This document shows, piece after piece, positions 3,001 through 34,589 of a stretch of 64,000 bases of DNA. The position numbers and the translations under genes are program-made. The notes below the pieces were generated by a model, which worked only from the letters and a program-made list of their open reading frames with translations, searched no databases and was not told the DNA's origin. Source of the DNA: Pseudogymnoascus verrucosus. Lineage: Eukaryota. The stretch is from NCBI GenBank assembly GCA_001662655.1, contig KV460208.1, one strand, 5' to 3'. Position 1 is the stretch's first letter, and each line of letters opens with the position of its first letter.

Positions 3001-4722
3001 AGCGGACGAGGGTACAGGGAGGGCGTAATGGCACATTCATGAATTGACTTGTGGAAAATGGTAATGGAGTTATTGAAAGATGGGAGATGCGATGGGGGTG
3101 GTGGGACTGTAACAAAATGTATTCTTGTTAGAGTACTGATATTCAATAATGCCGAGTTGATGGTTGTGCCCCGTAGTAGTCAAACATACGCTCGATCGGT
3201 TGTGGCGGCGGTATGCAGAATAACTTTATTGGGCAACTCCAAGAAGTTAGAATCGTTCTCATACTCATGTGAATGGAATCATACAATGGCCATAACGCGA
3301 ACTCTCTCTTGCCCGTGAATTCCTCATAGAGTGAGGTGATCATAAAGTATATATAAATAAGCATCGCAATAGTACAATGTATCAATAGAACGTTAAGGAA
3401 TAGCAATCCGAGGAGTTCCAGATAAGCTATCGCCTTCCATCTCCAGCCGGCCAGGACATCCTCAAGGTGGTGGAAGGCGCCGACATTATCTCCTTCGGTC
3501 GGCCGGAGACGTCGGAAGCAAGACTTGGTGGTTATGTTTCTCAAAATGCCATCCATGGCGTTCTTGTGGGTCTTGGATGTGTTTGTGATGGGCGGGGAGA
3601 CAGGTGTTGGTATTTGGTATTTGGTATTATAATGGTGAAGGTATTACAGAGATGAAGATATTCCCAGATCAGACGACCACTCATCAATCGAACATGTTAG
3701 TTAACTCGCGCCTTCCAAAACTCTTACGAGGGACCTTAACGGCTGATAATCGGTATGTGGACTTGAAGCTAATGAATGGAATTTATACCCTCTGCTTAAG
3801 CTCTTAATAAAACAGCTCGTTGAAAGCTTACAATGTGATCAGTATAATCCTAAGTGATTAAGAGCCTTTATTTATATACAACAGTTGCTGTGAATACTTA
3901 AATGCCATGGAAGGCTTGCGGGCTCTACTTTGCCTCTGGGCAACAATATTGAGTCCTTTTCTCAGACTTGCGGGCGGTGAACTCTCAACATCGTACGATT
4001 GTTGTCTTCTACGGCCCATTGAAACATGTTTCAAGAGCTGGATCAGTCTCACCGAGCCGTCACCCAAAGAAGGCATGGAATCCACAAAAGCCGCTGGGCA
4101 TCTCAGCATTGATTCAACGACCTACTATACTATCACACTACCACCGCGAAGGTCTATCTACACCATTCTCCCGTTCACAGCCCACTGTCCAATCCTTCCA
4201 TCCTCTGCCCGTCCAATGTTTCCCTTTCCACCTCACCACATACCATGGCCGCCTCCATATGGTTTCTCCCCTGCCCCTCCTCCCCTTACTCTCCGGAGAT
4301 CAGTTCAGTTCCAAACCACTGGATCAAATTGTGCCAATATCGTCAAAAGGTATCTACCAGGTTCCCGGGTTTTGTTGCAAAGTCGTAAAGAAGGAAATGA
4401 ATAACGGTAACGAAAAACGAGAAAAAGTGCGCAAAGCAAAAACGTAATAGAGCTTTTTGGGCGACGACAATTTTTTCCTTTCTAAGTCGAAGCCACACCC
4501 ATGATCAGACCAGGCGCCGGTGAATAAAGACGTTTCCGCGACATGCAAAGCCAAGAATGTATTTCGTGATGAGGATGCCAATACCGAATTGCGTATTAAA
4601 ATGGAGCAGCGAGTGTTGGTTACGTATTTATGTCCAAATAGAAGTAAAAAAGGCCGATGTTAAAATAGTCAAGTCGTTATGTCAGGTCATCGGAACCATT
4701 CGTGAAGCGGTGTTCATTGTAT

Positions 4723-25515: not shown

Positions 25516-25668
25516 GATCAAATTATATCCCAATCCCAACGTCAAACCCAGCCTCGTTCATATACTCTCCTCCTGGTGACGCCGTATCCATTCTATATAT
25601 CACATGGGATATCCATCGTCTAGCCACCATCACCACTCTCACCACCAACCTCACCCCCACCGCCCATC

Positions 25669-27261
25669 ATGTCCCTCGGCCGCCTCCACAACTTCCTCTC
25701 CGGCCACCGCGCCGATGCCTCCTCACCCCCTCCCCACTTCCTCGCCTTCCGCTCCTCAAAACTCTTCATCATCCTCACCCTCTGCGCCGCCGTCTTCAGC
25801 GACATGTTCCTCTACGGCGTCATCGTGCCCGTCGTCCCCTTTGCCCTGACCGCGCGCGCTGGAGTCCCGGAGGGTGACGCCCAGCACTGGGTCAGCGTGT
25901 TGCTTGCCGTCTACGGCGCCGCGCTGCTCGTGTCGGCGCCCATTTCGGGGTGGTATGCGGATCGCACGAGTAGTCGGAGACTGCCGCTACTGTTTGGCCT
26001 CGTGGCACTGACAGGGGCGACGGTGATGCTTTGTCTTGCAAGGAGCGTGGCGCTGATGGTTGTTGGGCGGCTGCTGCAGGGGTGTGCGGCGGGTGTGGTC
26101 TGGACGGTCGGCATGGCGTTGATGGTCGATACAGTCGGCCAGAAGGATATTGGGCAGCTTCTGGGGTATGTTGGGATTTCGATGTCGGTGGGGATTATTG
26201 CTGCACCGTTGGTTGGAGGGGTGGTGTACCAGAGGTGTGGTTACTATGAAGTTTACTATGTGTGTTTTGGGCTTTTGGCGCTGGATATTGGAATGAGGTT
26301 GGCGTTGATTGAGAAGAAGATTGCGGCGCAATGGGATGATGTGGTAGGTGTTAAGCCGGCAGTTGATGTGGGCGAAACGACGGCGGAAGAGGCGAGAGAG
26401 ACGGATTCACCTGCCGCGGTGGCGACGGAGAAAACTCTAGACGTCCCTGGTGTAACAAGCAGCACCGACGCCTCCACCACCAACGAAGCACCAACTTCGG
26501 CCCAACCGCCTCCCGCAACCCCTTCGCCCCGGCCCCGTCATCCAATGCTCACCCTCCTCTCCTCGCGCCGCCTCCTCGCCGCCCTCTGGGCCTGCCTAAT
26601 CCAAGCCTCCATCCTGACCGCCTTCGACTCCGTCCTCCCCCTATTCGTCGCCCGCACCTTCTCTTGGTCCCCCACCGGTGCCGGCCTCATCTTCTTGCCC
26701 ATCCTAATCCCTGGCTTCTTCGCGCCCCTCTTCGGCGCCATCGCCGACCGATACGGTCCGCGGTGGCTCGCTGTCTCGGGGTTTTTGGGCGCGATTCCGT
26801 GTTTGGTGTTGTTGAGATTCGTGGATCATAATTCCACGAGGCAGGTCATTCTGCTGTGTGCGTTGTTGGCGCTTTTGGGAACGGCGCTGGCGGCGGTTAT
26901 GCCCCCACTGATGGCGGAGATTACATATATTGTTGAAGCGAAGGAAGTGCGCAGCCCGGGAATCTTTGGGGCGAAGGGAGCATATGCGCAGGCATATGGG
27001 CTGTTCGTTATGGCGTTCGCTGGAGGATGTCTAGTGGGACCGATTTGGGCGGGGTTTGTGGATAATAAGAGTGGATGGGGAACGATGGGGTGGTCGTTAG
27101 CAATATTGAGTTTTGCGGGGGCGGTGCCGGTATTTATTTGGGCGGGGGGGTTGGTTACGAGGAATAATGCGAAGACGGGGGCGGAGAGGGCGGCGGGGAA
27201 GAGGGAGGTTAAGGTGGATGATGGAGGGGAAGAGGGGGTGGTGGGGGAGGAGGCGAGGTGA
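25669..27261 (+). CDS. MFS transporter, 12-TM, vesicular amine transporter/DHA1-like
   Basis: 530-aa intronless ORF, motif A (GWYADRTSSRR; GAIADRYGPR), two 6-helix halves separated by a hydrophilic loop. Confidence 0.9.
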   Translation: MSLGRLHNFLSGHRADASSPPPHFLAFRSSKLFIILTLCAAVFSDMFLYGVIVPVVPFALTARAGVPEGDAQHWVSVLLAVYGAALLVSAPISGWYADRTSSRRLPLLFGLVALTGATVMLCLARSVALMVVGRLLQGCAAGVVWTVGMALMVDTVGQKDIGQLLGYVGISMSVGIIAAPLVGGVVYQRCGYYEVYYVCFGLLALDIGMRLALIEKKIAAQWDDVVGVKPAVDVGETTAEEARETDSPAAVATEKTLDVPGVTSSTDASTTNEAPTSAQPPPATPSPRPRHPMLTLLSSRRLLAALWACLIQASILTAFDSVLPLFVARTFSWSPTGAGLIFLPILIPGFFAPLFGAIADRYGPRWLAVSGFLGAIPCLVLLRFVDHNSTRQVILLCALLALLGTALAAVMPPLMAEITYIVEAKEVRSPGIFGAKGAYAQAYGLFVMAFAGGCLVGPIWAGFVDNKSGWGTMGWSLAILSFAGAVPVFIWAGGLVTRNNAKTGAERAAGKREVKVDDGGEEGVVGEEAR

Positions 27262-27603: not shown

Positions 27604-29812
27604 ATGGAAGAGAGCACCCATACAGACTCTGGTCGAAAATCTCGGCGTGCACTCCGGCCATGCGATTCCTGTCGCAACCGTAAATCACGTTGCATCATCA
27701 ACAGCACAACCACCGGCGTATGTGCCAGTTGTGAGGCCCGGCAAGCCGACTGCACGTTTAGCAAGGGCCCTCCTCGGAGGTCTAAAGTGCGCAATGAGGG
27801 CCAACGAATGCGAGTTGGAACCCCGCCAAGTTCACAGGTCACAGGACTACGGCCTATCGCACCGGGTTATCAATTGGATGCGGGTCAAGCAGTTTGGACT
27901 CCAAGTGGTTTGGCGAATAGTATAGATGTAGCTCCAACAGCATATCTCGATGCGAGGCAATCGAGTCAGCCCAGGGCCTTACCGACGCTTGGGAGCAGGA
28001 TGCCAGATGCAGCCTCTGCCCCACTAGATGTCCAGTTTGATGAGACTGATGCATCCCTTGGACTTGCACCAAGCAATTTTTCTGAGTTGTATGGACTCAC
28101 GAGTGATATGGAGCCGATCTTAATGGTTTGTCTGCACGTTGGTAAGACCTTAGCAGGGAGCAATTGCTGATTATCATTAGCGGCACCGTCCATATGATGC
28201 ACCAAACCAAGAGTTCCGTTTGGAGACTCACTCGATCCGTAAAGTGTTGCAAAGCGACCAGGGAATGGAGTATCCATTGACCTTTCATGTTGTGCACGAC
28301 AGCAAAGCAATCGGTTACCAACTACTCCAGAGCGAGCACGACAACATCGAAGCCTGTGTTGCACCTCACGGACCAAGACTTATGGATTTATTTTGGAGAA
28401 TTATGCATCCGTCTTTCCCTATACTACATAGGCAAGGTTTCGTCCAGAAATATGCTCAGTCATATCAATCGGTTTCCGCCCCATTACTCGGAGCAATGTA
28501 TCTGATTGCTCTCGGATGGTGGGACTATGACCGCGAGCTTTCCAATCGGTCTATGCCAGACGCAACGAGCTTGCGAAAGCTCACCTTGCAGGCTATTCAG
28601 AATTCATATCACCGCCCAAAGCTTGCCAGTATTGAGGCTATGATTTTGCTACTACAATGCAAGCCTGAAGACCCGCTAAACCCGGACCATACTTGGAACT
28701 GGGGTTGTACAGGCCAACTCATATGTATTGGCCAAGCACTTGGTCTGCACCTGGACGCCTCATCATGGTCTATTCCGGACTGGGAGAAACGTTTACGGAA
28801 AAGACTTTCATGGGCCATTTACATGCAAGATAAATGGACAGCCTTGGCGCATGGACGACCGAGCCTTATCACGGACGATGAATGGATGGTAGTTGACCTA
28901 GACATCTCGGATTTTGAATCCTATACCTCTGAAGATGGCGAGGTTCGAGTTGACAGTCTATCAGGTGCAGTTAGAGTCGTTCAAATGGTCCAGCTGACTC
29001 GGATCCTGAGCGATGTGATGCGAACATTTTACACTCTCAGGGCAAGCAAAAACCAGGATACTTCCTACCTATATTCCCAGGCTATGCCACTTCTTGGTTT
29101 GTTAGATGCGTGGCATAAAAATCTTCCTAAATCGCTGCAGATGAACTACGAGGCCATCTCTAGACTCTGTCCGAATGGTGAGATTTCAGATCCGCAATCC
29201 TTGTGGAAAGTGCTAATTTTAGCAGGCTACCTCAGCTTGGCCTTCTACACTGTTAGAACCACAATACTGCGTCGATTAATAAGATCTACAGCACTCGAAC
29301 CACTATGTTTAGACGTCGACATATTAACACACACCCGGACATTAGCTCATGAGACAGCTCAAGAAGCGATAACATTTGTGTCCCGCCTAAGACCAGATCA
29401 TCTAGAGGCATTTTGGTATTTTGGTAAGCTTCCTCAGTCTCTTCATCTACATGGTATCTAATATCCACCAGCATCGCCATTTGGATTTTCTCTCGTCGGA
29501 TCTTTCACCACCTTACTCTTAGTCACCTCGCGGTCTGAGCCCGAGAAGACATTATGGAGAGAGAACCTAAACCGCTACTTATGGACTCTGCGGCTTATGA
29601 GTAAGGCTTGTGGGCCAATGAAGTATGCTGTCAACCGTCTCGAGGGGGCTATACTGAAGGGGATGGAACATGCTCTCTCAATTAACCTCGACGATTTGTT
29701 CATGGTTGCTGCGAGTCCCCTTGACTTAACATTTGCGAATACTTTCGACCCGTTCGAGAATCTAGCCAATCTCGACCTCAGCAACTTTGACTGGCTCAGT
29801 GCGCAGCCCTGA
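27604..29812 (+). CDS. Zn(II)2Cys6 transcription factor with fungal TF middle-homology region; introns 28126-28180, 29178-29225, 29424-29471
   Basis: CDSCRNRKSRC...CASCEARQADC cluster; LGLHLD...RKRLSWAIYMQDKWTALAHGRP; exons join in frame; acidic C-terminal tail. Confidence 0.9.
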
Positions 29813-30297: not shown

Positions 30298-31812
30298 TTA
30301 ATAGTCTGCCCCCTCAATCACCTTGAAATCCGAATACTCTACCCTTCCATCCTCCACAAATAATCTAGTTTCTCCTCCCTTCGTCGACGATGACTGTTGG
30401 GGCAGTCTGTAGCTGAGGGAGCGACCTCCAACAAATACCTCCAAGACATCTCTAGACCTCAAGATAGTTACAGGTTTATCTATCTTAATATTATCATGCC
30501 TGACAATCGTTGGGCCATCAACCCCCCTTGGAAGGTATATCTTGTATTGGTCTGCCCAGAAATCATCAAACGGAGCTGGCGCCGTAGCAAGCGACACTGT
30601 ATATCTACCATCGAAGGTTGGTTCGAAGCGCAAATAGCACCCGCTAAGATCACTGTCGCTACCAAATATGAGGCCAAATGAAGTTGCCGAGCTCGACACG
30701 ATACCAAATGTTATCATATATGGCCGTTCGCATTTGATCTCGAATGACTTCGTGGCAGTACTACCAACAGCTTCAAACTCGGTGTTTGTGAGGTTTGTCG
30801 ACGGCTGCGCATAGAACACGGTATCGAGAGCTTGACGGATAGGTTCAACGACCAGTGTTCCGTCTTCTTTTGCCATCACCTCCCTCGGCATAGCCATATC
30901 GCCGCCCCACATCCATTTTCCATCAGCGACACACTGATCTGCCACCCAGCCGAAAAACACTCTCTTGGAAGGATCGTTGGCTTTTGGGCAAGACTTTGCA
31001 GCATACCATCGTCTACCATCGAGTCTGCCACCCGAGCCATCTTTGGGGGCATGGAATGGACCGCGTGGGCTGTCGGCGACGCGATATACCACTCCTGCGT
31101 TTGGCGCCGAAAACCTCGAATACACAAGGTACCATTTCTTATTCGGTAGCTGGAATAGCTCAGGGCACTCGGGGCACATCATATCATTTGGCGCATATAG
31201 AGGCTTGGGTTCCAATGACCATGTTTGTAGGTCTTCGGACGTGAGTAACGCCAGGCAGCCGCGAGTCCAGTGTGGCCCCTCAGCCAGCCTTGTTGCCACA
31301 ATCATCCAGTAGCATTTTTCATCCTCGTTGTACAGTACAAACGGGTCCCTAAAATCTATATCTTCGAATGCTGCCCGGGCGCCACCGTCTGACTTGAGAT
31401 GGATGGGTTGTGTTGATTTGGTGAATTGAGAGCCGATACGGTCATTCGAGGTTGCGTGAATGATAACTTGCTTTCCTCCCTGGGCAAGATTATACCCCGT
31501 GTAGAAGATATGCATGTTTCCATCAGGACCAAGTATTGCTGATCCGGTCCATACTCCGTCTGCATCTGGTGACTGTGTGCTCTCTCCGGGAGAGAGGGCT
31601 GGTTGCTCAGCCCGTTCCCATTGAGTGAGGCATTTGGATCGGAGGTGGCTCCATGAGGAGCGTAATCTCTCCGGATGATGGATTGTCGAAGGAGGTGTGC
31701 TCAAGTGAAATAGGTGGTATTCATTGTCGACGAGGATAGGGATGGCATCTGCCGCCGCTGTGTTTTCGGAAGGTCTCCGAATGGAAGTAGTAAGTGATAT
31801 TTTTGAAGGCAT
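30298..31812 (-). CDS. GH32 beta-fructosidase, intronless, no signal peptide, atypical nucleophile motif
   Basis: ADAIP (putative nucleophile), WTGS, FRDPFV, ECPELF, YAAKS, WMWGG motifs; C-terminal beta-sandwich-like region. Confidence 0.88.
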   Translation of the reverse strand: MPSKISLTTSIRRPSENTAAADAIPILVDNEYHLFHLSTPPSTIHHPERLRSSWSHLRSKCLTQWERAEQPALSPGESTQSPDADGVWTGSAILGPDGNMHIFYTGYNLAQGGKQVIIHATSNDRIGSQFTKSTQPIHLKSDGGARAAFEDIDFRDPFVLYNEDEKCYWMIVATRLAEGPHWTRGCLALLTSEDLQTWSLEPKPLYAPNDMMCPECPELFQLPNKKWYLVYSRFSAPNAGVVYRVADSPRGPFHAPKDGSGGRLDGRRWYAAKSCPKANDPSKRVFFGWVADQCVADGKWMWGGDMAMPREVMAKEDGTLVVEPIRQALDTVFYAQPSTNLTNTEFEAVGSTATKSFEIKCERPYMITFGIVSSSATSFGLIFGSDSDLSGCYLRFEPTFDGRYTVSLATAPAPFDDFWADQYKIYLPRGVDGPTIVRHDNIKIDKPVTILRSRDVLEVFVGGRSLSYRLPQQSSSTKGGETRLFVEDGRVEYSDFKVIEGADY

Positions 31813-32021
31813 TGTGGAATGGTAGTGACGGTCGTTCCGTCCGAAAACAATTAACTATTTATGAGGACGTATGAAATAGAGACATTACAGATATAGTACA
31901 TATAGAAAAAGATCCTTGTTAAACTTACTAGAAATATGAAGACTATAAGGTAACATAATTGCAATTGTCGAGCTTTGGATGAAGTGAGGTGCCGGTGATA
32001 CTTGCGGTATCTCAACAGACG

Positions 32022-32148
32022 AATCGGCGTCATTGCAGTTGCCGTGGCCTTTATTTGTAGCCAATCGGCGCGCTTCAAAATGCCGCAGTCAATTCAACAG
32101 CAAATCGGCGCGCATGCAAATGCCGAAGAAAATCCCATGACCAATCGG
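32022..32148. promoter_or_regulatory. Array of CGG-N14-CCG sites (AATCGGCG-N10-TGCCG) in the GH32/transporter divergent promoter
   Basis: Full copies at 32022-32044, 32063-32085, 32103-32125 and a half-site AATCGG at 32143-32148; period 40-41 bp. Confidence 0.7.
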
Positions 32149-32493
32149 TACCGCCCTTCGGCTTGCCACTTTGACGGGAACGATGCCTATTCTAAGCCGA
32201 ACCATAGAAAATCCAGAACTTCCAAGTCAAGGTGCCATAAACATACGCTATCGCTGCTTTTTAGGATGACAATGTCTCCATCTTTTTTATATTTGCTCAA
32301 TTAGACACGGCTTTAGCGGCACCCATGGGGTACCCCAGAATCCGGAGAAGGGGTAGTTGCAAGTTCGTGGGGTTATAAAGCTAGCGGACCTGGCACTTTC
32401 GTTCACTCCACATTGCATACATCCCAAGAGTTGGGATATCACTTCCTAAGAAATCTCTCATACCTATCTTTTATACCATTGTCCTCGAGAATA

Positions 32494-34363
32494 ATGGCTA
32501 AACTTAAGCATCCATATGCATGGCTTTTTTGCTCATTCGCAGCCCTGGGGGCTTGTCTCTATGGTTATGACGGAGTCTATTTCACAGGGGTGTCCGCTAT
32601 GGACATCTTCGTCGAACACTTCGGGACCCAAAAAGCAGATGGTTCATATGAGATTTCATCCTCGCAGCTTTCTCTAATGACATCGGTTATCAACATCGGA
32701 GAACTCCTTGGCTCCTTAACGGCTGCGCCATTGAACGACTATCTTGGCCGCAAAGGCGTTTTCCTAATTGCTTCCATAGCAATCATTATTGGTGTTATAC
32801 TCCAGCTTGTCACCGACCATAATACGTCGTACATCATGGGAGGCCGCATCATTCTTGGCTATGGCGTTGGTAATTTCTCTGCCACTTCACCATTATACAT
32901 AGGAGTAAGTTCCGACTCATGTGGGGAAAATCAATTCTAACCATTATTTAGGAAATTGCACCTGCAGCTATTCGTGGCCAGCTTCTTATGTGCTGGCAGC
33001 TTGTTATTTCCATTTCACAAATTATTGCCGCCGCGATCAATCGTGGTACCGAAGGAATCAACTCGACCGTGGCGTATCGTGTACCAATGGGTGTCCAAGT
33101 CGTTTTCCCTGTCATTGTTCTCGCCGGACTTTGGTGGGTTCCAGAGTCTCCACGCTGGCTACTCCGCAAAGGAAAGAAGGAGTCTGCCAGGAAAGCTCTT
33201 GTACTTGTTCATCGTGGCGAGCAGTATACTCCAGACGAAGACCTCAGTGTCCTGCAACAAGATATTGACGATGAGTCTCTGAAGGCTGCAGAATCATCTT
33301 GGATGGATCTCGTTAGAGATCCAATTGAGAGACGCAAGGTGGTGTACTCTGCTGGTGCGTTGATCGCGCAGCAGATTAATGGCATCCAATGGTTTTATTA
33401 CTTCGGAACTGTGTTCTCAAAAGCAATTGGCCTTCAGGATCCATTTTTAATGACATTGATTGTTTTTGTAAGTCAACACCCTTTCCCAAGATATATGTTG
33501 TCACATTCTGATATTTTGGTAGATCATTCAGGTAGTTGTTGTCTTTGTAGCTGTGCTTTTCGCCAACAGCCTCCCAAGGCGCCCGCTTCTCCTCATTACT
33601 ACAGGTCTTATGACAGTCTCTATCTTTGTTGTCGGTTGCCTCGGAATACCTGGAAATACGCCATCGCCGACGATTGGAAAAGTCATCTTCGCATTCATTA
33701 TTATTGAAATTACAGCTTTCAACTTTGCATGGGGCCCGTAAGTAATCATTCTATATCATATGTTCAATCATACTGACAATATCATAGGCTTGGATGGACG
33801 ATAGTAAGTGAGCAGTGTCTCGAACAAGGACTCTCCATAACATTTTATAGGCTTCTGAGATGGCAGTGGGCCGAAATCGTAATAAGATCTACGCCATTTC
33901 CGTTGGTTGCTTCTGGGTGAGTACTATGCCACTCTTAACCCTTATGGTTATATTAATTTTATACAGATCACCGTATGGGCAACAGTGTTTACTCTCCCTT
34001 ACCTGGTACGTCGAATGTCACATTATGGGAAGATCGTGCTAACCCGCCGCAGTACTACAACGCAAATCTCGGCCCAAAGACGGGGTTTGTCTACACAGGC
34101 CTTTGCTTTGTCTCGCTATCATACGTATATTTCTGCGTCGGTGAAGTCACAGGCAGAACGATGGAAGAGATCAATGGATTCTTTGCTGATGTACGATGCC
34201 AACCACTGTATTCAGAGCGTAATATACTAATTATTTCTAGGGAATCCCAGCAAAGCAGTGGCAACATCAGCCATCGCTTGCAGAGCGTGCAGCTAATACT
34301 CATGTCAAGGGTGATGATGAAGAGAAAAGCGCTGGAAGTATGCAAGTTGAGAAGGGGCTGTAA
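32494..34363 (+). CDS. Sugar porter (MFS), maltose/oligosaccharide-permease-like; 7 introns
   Basis: GACLYGYD, NDYLGRK, EIAPAAIRG, PESPRWL, QQINGIQ, FAWGP-LGW, EVTGRTMEEI motifs; exons join in frame to TAA at 34361-34363. Confidence 0.92.
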
Positions 34364-34589
34364 ATTCGAGGTGTTTGATTATTACGGTGTATATTATAAG
34401 AAACCTAGTAGAGGCGAGGATATATTGCATTTATAGATTCTGGGTTCAACGGATTAACACGCATATAACGTTCTGGTACACTTGATTTCTTAGATCATAC
34501 GATTAAATGAGCCTAGGTAAGGTAGGTTCGATGTTTGATGTTGTAAAATACAGTATATATATTGCATCAAGGTGCGGGCTACCTGCTAC

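Follow-up and report, generated by a model that had tools for sequence, protein, structure and literature searches.

A triplicated CGG-N14-CCG array in the divergent promoter of a conserved fungal regulator, GH32 and permease cluster: a probable upstream activating sequence

Among Zn2Cys6 (zinc-cluster) proteins, Gal4 reads CGG-N11-CCG, Put3 an N10 and Ppr1 an N6 spacing, and the gene of another such regulator, inuR, lies in one cluster with sucB and a transporter gene. Longer spacers are on record. According to the accessible part of PMC2784042, the consensus of the yeast ORE (Pip2-Oaf1) is CGGN3TN(A/R)N8-12CCG, that is, N14 to N18, and PMC10294635, in the portion available, gives CGGN12CCG for Aspergillus fumigatus AtrR, with the half-site alone at many targets. 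The sites of InuR and AmyR are written CGGN8(C/A)GG in the accessible text of PMC10142829 and PMC5468973, and the available part of PMC13617670 presents Aspergillus niger SucB as the only cytosolic fungal invertase characterised in detail. Finally, the MAL clusters of Saccharomyces and Aspergillus oryzae hold a permease gene and a gene for an intracellular hydrolase that are jointly controlled by the regulator encoded beside them (PMC11930586, available portion).

The locus described here lies in a stretch of 64,000 nucleotides of Pseudogymnoascus verrucosus DNA (contig KV460208.1), referred to below as the window. Three genes are of interest. The first, at 27604-29812 on the plus strand, encodes a Zn2Cys6 transcription factor (TF) in three coding pieces separated by two short inferred introns, and is our candidate regulator. 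Its product matches the Pfam families Zn_clus (E 3.8e-05) and Fungal_trans (E 1.7e-27); one piece is 91% identical to a Pseudogymnoascus protein, and the N- and C-terminal pieces match the proteins P0001/P0003. The second gene, at 30298-31812 on the minus strand, is a single exon encoding a GH32 protein of the beta-fructofuranosidase type, of 504 aa (Glyco_hydro_32N, E 5.1e-37), which is 99% identical, along its full length (100%), to a Pseudogymnoascus protein of 504 aa; the GH32 protein of another Leotiomycete, Mollisia scopiformis, is 74% identical to it. No signal-peptide-like N-terminus was seen on this protein, and the N-terminus is conserved in our GH32 alignment (A1). At the place of the usual nucleophile motif the fungal GH32 reads AADAIP. 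The third gene, at 32494-34436 on the plus strand (3′ end approximate), encodes an MFS sugar transporter (Sugar_tr, E 3.4e-25 and 1.6e-35) with a first intron at 32905-32951. The corresponding GT..AG joint, 32904>32952, is confirmed in a contig of run X9, which is probably RNA-derived since it holds a spliced contig. The X9 contigs cover parts of the GH32 and MFS genes, outside the array described below, and one of them starts at 32385; a contig of another run, X13, spans 32125-32549. Directly upstream of the TF gene and on the same strand, at 25666-27258, is another MFS transporter gene, of the MFS_1 family, whose product has a central loop rich in Ala, Pro, Ser and Thr; this product had no tblastn match at E <=1e-8 in loci L001-L019 of the set introduced below.

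The GH32 and MFS genes are divergently transcribed from a common intergenic promoter of 681 bp (31813-32493, to which no strand is assigned). In the middle of this promoter, upstream of both start codons (210-336 nt from the GH32 ATG and 346-472 nt from that of the transporter), a pattern search of the window found the 23-base motif AATCGGCG-N10-TGCCG three times on the plus strand: at 32022-32044 (copy 1, AATCGGCGTCATTGCAGTTGCCG), at 32063-32085 (copy 2, AATCGGCGCGCTTCAAAATGCCG, where a CC just before the motif makes a CCAAT box at 32061) and at 32103-32125 (copy 3, AATCGGCGCGCATGCAAATGCCG). The earlier note had described three CGG-N14-CCG copies at a spacing of 41/40/40, and direct reading agrees on both points. 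Exactly 14 nt separate the CGGs at 32025, 32066 and 32106 from the CCGs at 32042, 32083 and 32123, and a further CGG starts at 32146. Inverted CGG triplets at a fixed spacing, as in the inverted-repeat class of Zn2Cys6 upstream activating sequences (UAS), are thus found in all three copies, with unequal arms, AATCGGCG on one side versus CGGCA on the other. The further CGG belongs to a fourth AATCGG, at 32143, which is followed by TACCG (making CGG-N2-CCG) and by a TGCCA placed 3 nt out of register. No CGG-N10-, N11- or N12-CCG pair, of the Put3, Gal4 or AtrR type, was found in the window's divergent promoter. An open reading frame of 100 codons started by TTG runs across the array (32002-32304); we dismissed it as a gene because it has no ATG start and because one base, at 32230, is missing from it in the relative X8.

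The rarity of the array depends on how much of the motif is specified. When the full pattern was searched with one mismatch permitted, it occurred 3 times in the window, with a shuffle mean of 0.08, and none of 100 dinucleotide shuffles gave 3, a figure that is generous since the pattern was defined from the same data, after looking. Bare CGG-N14-CCG is not rare (23 in the window, 13.7 expected; 23 was reached by 3 of 100 shuffles), and the heptamer ATCGGCG occurs at about chance level (8, with 7.5 expected). The relaxed dyad CGGCR-N10-YGCCG has 3 matches in the window, none of them outside the array, as against 11 in a background of 566 kb taken from unrelated, non-orthologous loci (L016-L071).

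Scanning metagenome contigs with the GH32 alignment (22 sequences) yielded 71 loci; in L001-L019 neighbouring genes were sought by tblastn with the window proteins. Fifteen of the 71 (L001-L015, GH32 identity 47-78%) are of the fungal type and were used. The others, L016-L071, were not counted as orthologues: their GH32 identity is at most 45%, they are mostly of the bacterial type, and no TF or MFS match was found in L016-L019. Relatives of this bacterial type, 31-45% identical, are numerous in the GH32 subfamily and come from metagenomes of gut, fermentation and soil; those in L016-L019 stand without TF or transporter neighbours.

All 12 loci whose sequence continues past GH32 have the TF gene next to it (L010, L013 and L014 stop short of it), and the MFS gene stands head-to-head with GH32 in each of the 10 that have over 300 nt upstream (L001, L006, L007, L008 and L015 are too short there). 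Furthermore, the TF and GH32 genes carry consecutive locus tags at NCBI in Neofusicoccum ribis, Stylonectria norvegica, Neonectria punicea, Tolypocladium paradoxum, Knufia peltigerae and Sporothrix eucalyptigena. By these tags the adjacency spans several classes of Pezizomycotina. In Saitoella complicata and others, the TF and GH32 matches come from contigs equal in listed size. The traits of a pathway-specific cluster of the MAL kind, namely an adjacent regulator, a permease, an intracellular hydrolase and a conserved layout, are therefore all present, and the synteny implies that the regulator is co-inherited with the promoter over large evolutionary distances. A description of the TF-GH32-transporter cluster was not found in literature searches whose coverage stopped short of subscription-only papers, nor is the cluster mentioned in the available portion of PMC11930586.

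We then compared ten intergenic regions, that of the window and those of L002, L003, L004 and L009-L014; L005 was left out because it duplicates L004. The most enriched 5-mer is CGGCA/TGCCG, with 42 occurrences for 14.2 expected from dinucleotide shuffles (z 7.8), spread over 9 of the 10 promoters and absent from that of L004. CCGGC, ACGGC and CGGCG are enriched too, so that the exact recognition sequence is not pinned down. When L012, which is close to L011, was removed, TGCCGT, TTGCCG and ATGCCG were still among the top 6-mers. CGGCA is rare upstream of the TF gene itself (3 in 3000 nt, five control regions). This enrichment supports a zinc-cluster site.

The geometry of the sites is far less constant than the half-site. 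Inverted N14 pairs number three in the window, one in L010 and one in L011, where the pair overlaps an N11 pair and is absent from the relative L012; three weaker cases, with CGG and CCG only, occur in L003, L004 and L013. A CGGC..GCCG pair at N14 is absent from seven of the nine other promoters (L002, L003, L004, L009, L012, L013 and L014). In the distant loci the commonest arrangement is an everted CCG-N1-CGG, typically TGCCGTCGGC, with 19 instances in 7 of the 10 regions and none in the window or L010. The string TGCCG(T/A)CGGC recurs in L003, L009, L011, L012 and L013, often with another CGGC 6-9 nt upstream. Where other lineages have discrete CGGC half-sites, the L014 promoter has a (CGGC)6 microsatellite (3400-3440; intergenic 232-262), and slippage may thus be another route to site multiplication. 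The earlier note had proposed an N14 operator for the adjacent TF. What holds of that proposal is the sugar-gene divergent promoter, the Zn2Cys6 neighbour kept beside it and a half-site that is the top 5-mer. The fixed N14 dyad as the operator is not supported: in the footprinting of orthologous promoters it is found at the matching position only in L010, and the distant loci favour CCG-N1-CGG.

Two ways of reading the array come into question, an N14 dyad bound by a dimer or single CGGC(A/G) half-sites, and the unequal arms, the lineage-variable geometry and the residues that follow the zinc cluster all bear on the choice. The 60-130 residues that follow the zinc cluster are rich in Pro, Ser and Gly, and no coiled-coil or heptad stretch is evident after it, on inspection by eye of the window TF, P0003 and P0011; a Gal4-like symmetric dimer is therefore not assured. 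A PDB sequence search with the TF N-terminus returned weak zinc-cluster matches (Lac9, E 0.031; Leu3, E 0.76) which are uninformative on site geometry. If the sites worked as separate CGGCA (and CGGCG) half-sites, each read by a monomer or by proteins loosely coupled to one another, then the spacing of N14 and the phasing of 40 bp would be by-products of the way the unit was copied. The TF residues just described would suit such binding, as would the presence of CGGCA in nine of ten promoters at spacings and orientations that vary with the lineage (N14, N8, N10, N11, everted N1), and the promoter of L010, whose nine CGGCA are mostly arranged as direct ATGCCG repeats. However, both arms are invariant in all three copies of the window, and an N14 dyad sits at the same position in the window and L010 although only 39% of the alignment columns around it are identical. 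On balance we regard independent half-sites as possible but on the doubtful side.

L010 is the nearest informative relative, with a GH32 protein 78% identical to that of the window. The alignment of the two promoters (A2), 39% identical in columns overall, contains four windows with at least 11 of 15 columns identical. One is the transporter TATA (32372-32386), where the TATAAA itself lies at 32374-32379 on the plus strand. Another, CCCCAT.G.TGCCGC at 32316-32330 (13/15 identical), is part of a block at 32316-32338, kept in L010, that combines a CGGCA half-site (GCGGCA, plus strand) with a CreA-like CTGGGG (minus strand). This block stands about 40-60 nt upstream of the transporter TATA and is a likely input for glucose repression; its CreA-like site is GCGGGG in L010, and CreA-like SYGGRG matches are present in the divergent promoter. 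The third is a weak block at 32197-32211. The best-conserved block is GGTACCGATTGGTCA / GATGCCGATTGGTCA at 32138-32152 (13/15 identical), whose plus strand reads TGACCAATCGG, a CCAAT box joined to a CGG; with the TACCG that follows, this element extends over 32138-32153 (plus strand), and its 11-mer is identical in L010.

L010 has a single dyad, CGGCATCTCTGTGCTTGCCGACTGG, directly beside an identical CCGATTGGTCA. It aligns with copy 3 (CGGCATTTGCATGCGCGCCGATTTG, same orientation), of which it is the positional orthologue, and it lies at a similar distance from both start codons. Copies 1 and 2 have no counterpart in the L010 promoter. This comparison leads us to an ancestral module made of one N14 dyad and a CCAAT-CGG element, the array being an expansion in the Pseudogymnoascus lineage.

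The conservation of TGACCAATCGG also raises the question of whether another factor reads this region, either the CCAAT-binding complex at CCAATCGG or a global sugar regulator, alone or with a different zinc-cluster protein. Overlap of this kind has a precedent in Aspergillus nidulans, where AmdR and CCAAT-factor sites overlap; here a CCAAT runs into the left arm of copy 2 (32061) and of the fourth site (32141), and the block that includes the latter is the one best conserved with L010. But these are the only CCAATs, in two of the four units, the other two reading GAAT and AAAT, and it is the copy at 32141 that is conserved in L010. The word that stands out in the distant orthologues is CGGCA rather than CCAAT, and in every informative locus the TF gene accompanies the promoter. 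As to a global sugar regulator, the AmyR/InuR-type CGGN8(C/A)GG is absent from the array (32022-32153) and has one match in the promoter, at 32199 on the minus strand. We therefore consider it unlikely that a factor other than the neighbouring regulator accounts for the array.

The origin of the array is best seen in its units. With Tandem Repeats Finder, the stretch 32061-32148 comes out as a repeat of period 40 bp, with 2.2 copies and 72% matches. Units 2 and 3 are head-to-tail copies with similarity over the whole unit, as expected of a tandem repeat (75% over 40 nt), agreeing at 13/13 positions of the motif, 7/10 of the spacer and 8/17 of the linker, hence 15/27 outside the motif. Unit 1 agrees with the others at 13/13 motif positions and at 7/27 elsewhere, which is the chance level. 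The earlier note's statement that, with unconserved sequence between the copies, this is no simple tandem duplication is right in part at most, and the claim that the copies are not duplications should be dropped, given the reported period and the similarity of units 2 and 3; unit 1 resembles the others in the motif only. Across the three units 16 columns are invariant, in runs of 8 and 5, an arrangement with P ~3.5e-5 in 200,000 column permutations.

The array thus looks like a decayed 40-bp tandem duplication. The simplest reading of the sequence would be successive duplications of a 40-bp unit, followed by drift everywhere save in both arms, and selection on the arms would produce a pattern of this kind, in which drift spares them alone. 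The phasing of 40/41 bp is inherited from the length of the unit and requires neither selection nor a function of its own; the idea of a designed 40-bp phasing must accordingly be dropped. That the array is nothing but a neutral, decaying 40-bp minisatellite without regulatory role, its shared blocks being chance survivors, would fit the 40-bp period, the likeness of units 2 and 3 and the slippage-prone (CGGC)6 of L014, but is very improbable given the clustering of the invariant columns in two runs, a unit 1 that is perfect in the motif and at chance level outside it, the dyad and CCAAT-CGG element kept in L010, and a half-site enriched across fungal classes.

Contigs from four runs provided closer relatives, compared over 31300-33000, with differences read from those listed. 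A single X8 contig spans all of this region; over the 1701 nt it shows 76 substitutions and 4 indels, a divergence of about 4.5%. The X7 contig covers 32085-32239 with 14 differences, 7 of them among those listed; 49 further differences belong to the comparison overall. Among the differences listed, X7 and X8 depart from the window within 32022-32153 only at 32115-32117, in the spacer of copy 3, and at 32140, in a linker. The same differences include no indel in the array, and all specified motif positions are kept. This pattern agrees with constraint on the arms, with little power, because only about 1.3 changes would be expected in 39 positions. Over 31884-32114 (231 nt), X8 has 2 differences among those listed, at 31998 and 32001. 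Constraint may thus be stronger on the AT-rich, GH32-proximal half of the promoter, and on copies 1 and 2, than on the coding sequence at its sides.

Taken together, these observations make the array very probably a real cis-regulatory module, and probably one that works as a UAS. That it is the UAS of the bidirectional GH32/MFS promoter, offering CGGC(A/G) half-sites to a zinc-cluster protein, most likely the Zn2Cys6 protein encoded next door, is the account we favour, and we hold it to be reasonably, if not strongly, probable. The neighbouring regulator is a plausible binder in view of the synteny and of the conservation of the half-site; the binding protein, the activating direction of its effect and the inducing sugar are what we infer here. 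In this model a zinc-cluster activator sitting at the array would drive the GH32 gene and the MFS permease gene from one promoter. The pair would probably serve the uptake and cleavage of sucrose or of fructo-oligosaccharides, the GH32 enzyme presumably acting in the cytosol. The ancestral module would have had one dyad, the present copy 3, beside the CCAAT-CGG element; copies 2 and 1 would have been added through duplication of a 40-bp unit, after which only the half-site blocks would have stayed constant. Inputs from the CCAAT-binding complex and from a repressor of the CreA type are also probable at the GH32/MFS promoter.

A broader proposal can be made more tentatively. The neighbouring gene may encode a pathway-specific regulator not yet characterised and different from InuR and AmyR, which would have stayed with a cytosolic GH32 and the permease throughout the Ascomycota, as far as Saitoella; the arrangement of its CGGCA sites would have been rewired between lineages, to three N14 dyads in Pseudogymnoascus and to CCG-N1-CGG in other classes. 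Were this so, the cluster would offer a natural series for following how the geometry of zinc-cluster sites evolves with an orthologous protein. If the UAS model is confirmed, a widely conserved TF-GH32-permease cluster would gain an assigned regulator, a binding motif and two targets, and the array would show on a concrete example how tandem duplication multiplies sites in a bidirectional promoter. What is known of the way zinc-cluster proteins read DNA would be unchanged, since CGG dyads with long spacers are established, and so is the clustering of sites in the divergent promoters of sugar genes.

Indeed, the spacing that the earlier note had called unusual has precedents, in the N14-18 of the ORE (PMC2784042, accessible part) and the N12 of AtrR (PMC10294635, portion available). 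Like the array, the ORE is a pair of inverted CGG triplets set far apart (14-18 nt), and according to the same part of PMC2784042 it acts bidirectionally in a shared promoter. The array does not conform to the ORE consensus, as only one of its three copies fits the inner T-N-R positions (copy 3, minus strand); moreover, the pathway here is sugar use and that of the ORE is fatty-acid use. The comparison with Pip2-Oaf1 concerns the sites. AtrR is likewise a Zn2Cys6 factor with a long inverted dyad, and from a filamentous fungus, but its spacer is N12 instead of N14 and it governs a sterol, azole and iron regulon without being cluster-encoded. Full-text literature searches with the CGGN12 to CGGN15 spellings found only AtrR papers and one unrelated paper.

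In substrate, the locus recalls InuR and AmyR of A. niger, Zn2Cys6 activators of sucrose and inulin genes that include invertases and sugar transporters, as the accessible text of PMC10142829 and PMC5468973 has it. Among the 120 best TF or GH32 matches listed there is none from A. niger. In layout, it recalls the MAL loci, with which it shares the three-gene cluster of regulator, permease and intracellular hydrolase. The hydrolase here is a GH32 protein (a fructosidase), whereas that of MAL is an alpha-glucosidase, and the likeness to the MalR and Mal63 systems is one of layout. In promoter architecture, the comparison is with the GAL1-GAL10 UAS and Gal4: several inverted CGG dyads stand in the middle of a divergent promoter that serves one sugar pathway, with a presumed Zn2Cys6 reader. 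Unlike that system, the array has N14 and not N11 spacers, unequal arms and sites that apparently arose by tandem duplication, and its candidate reader has no evident coiled-coil. The array is probably a UAS of an ordinary kind, most likely read by the regulator of the adjacent gene, a common arrangement in fungi.
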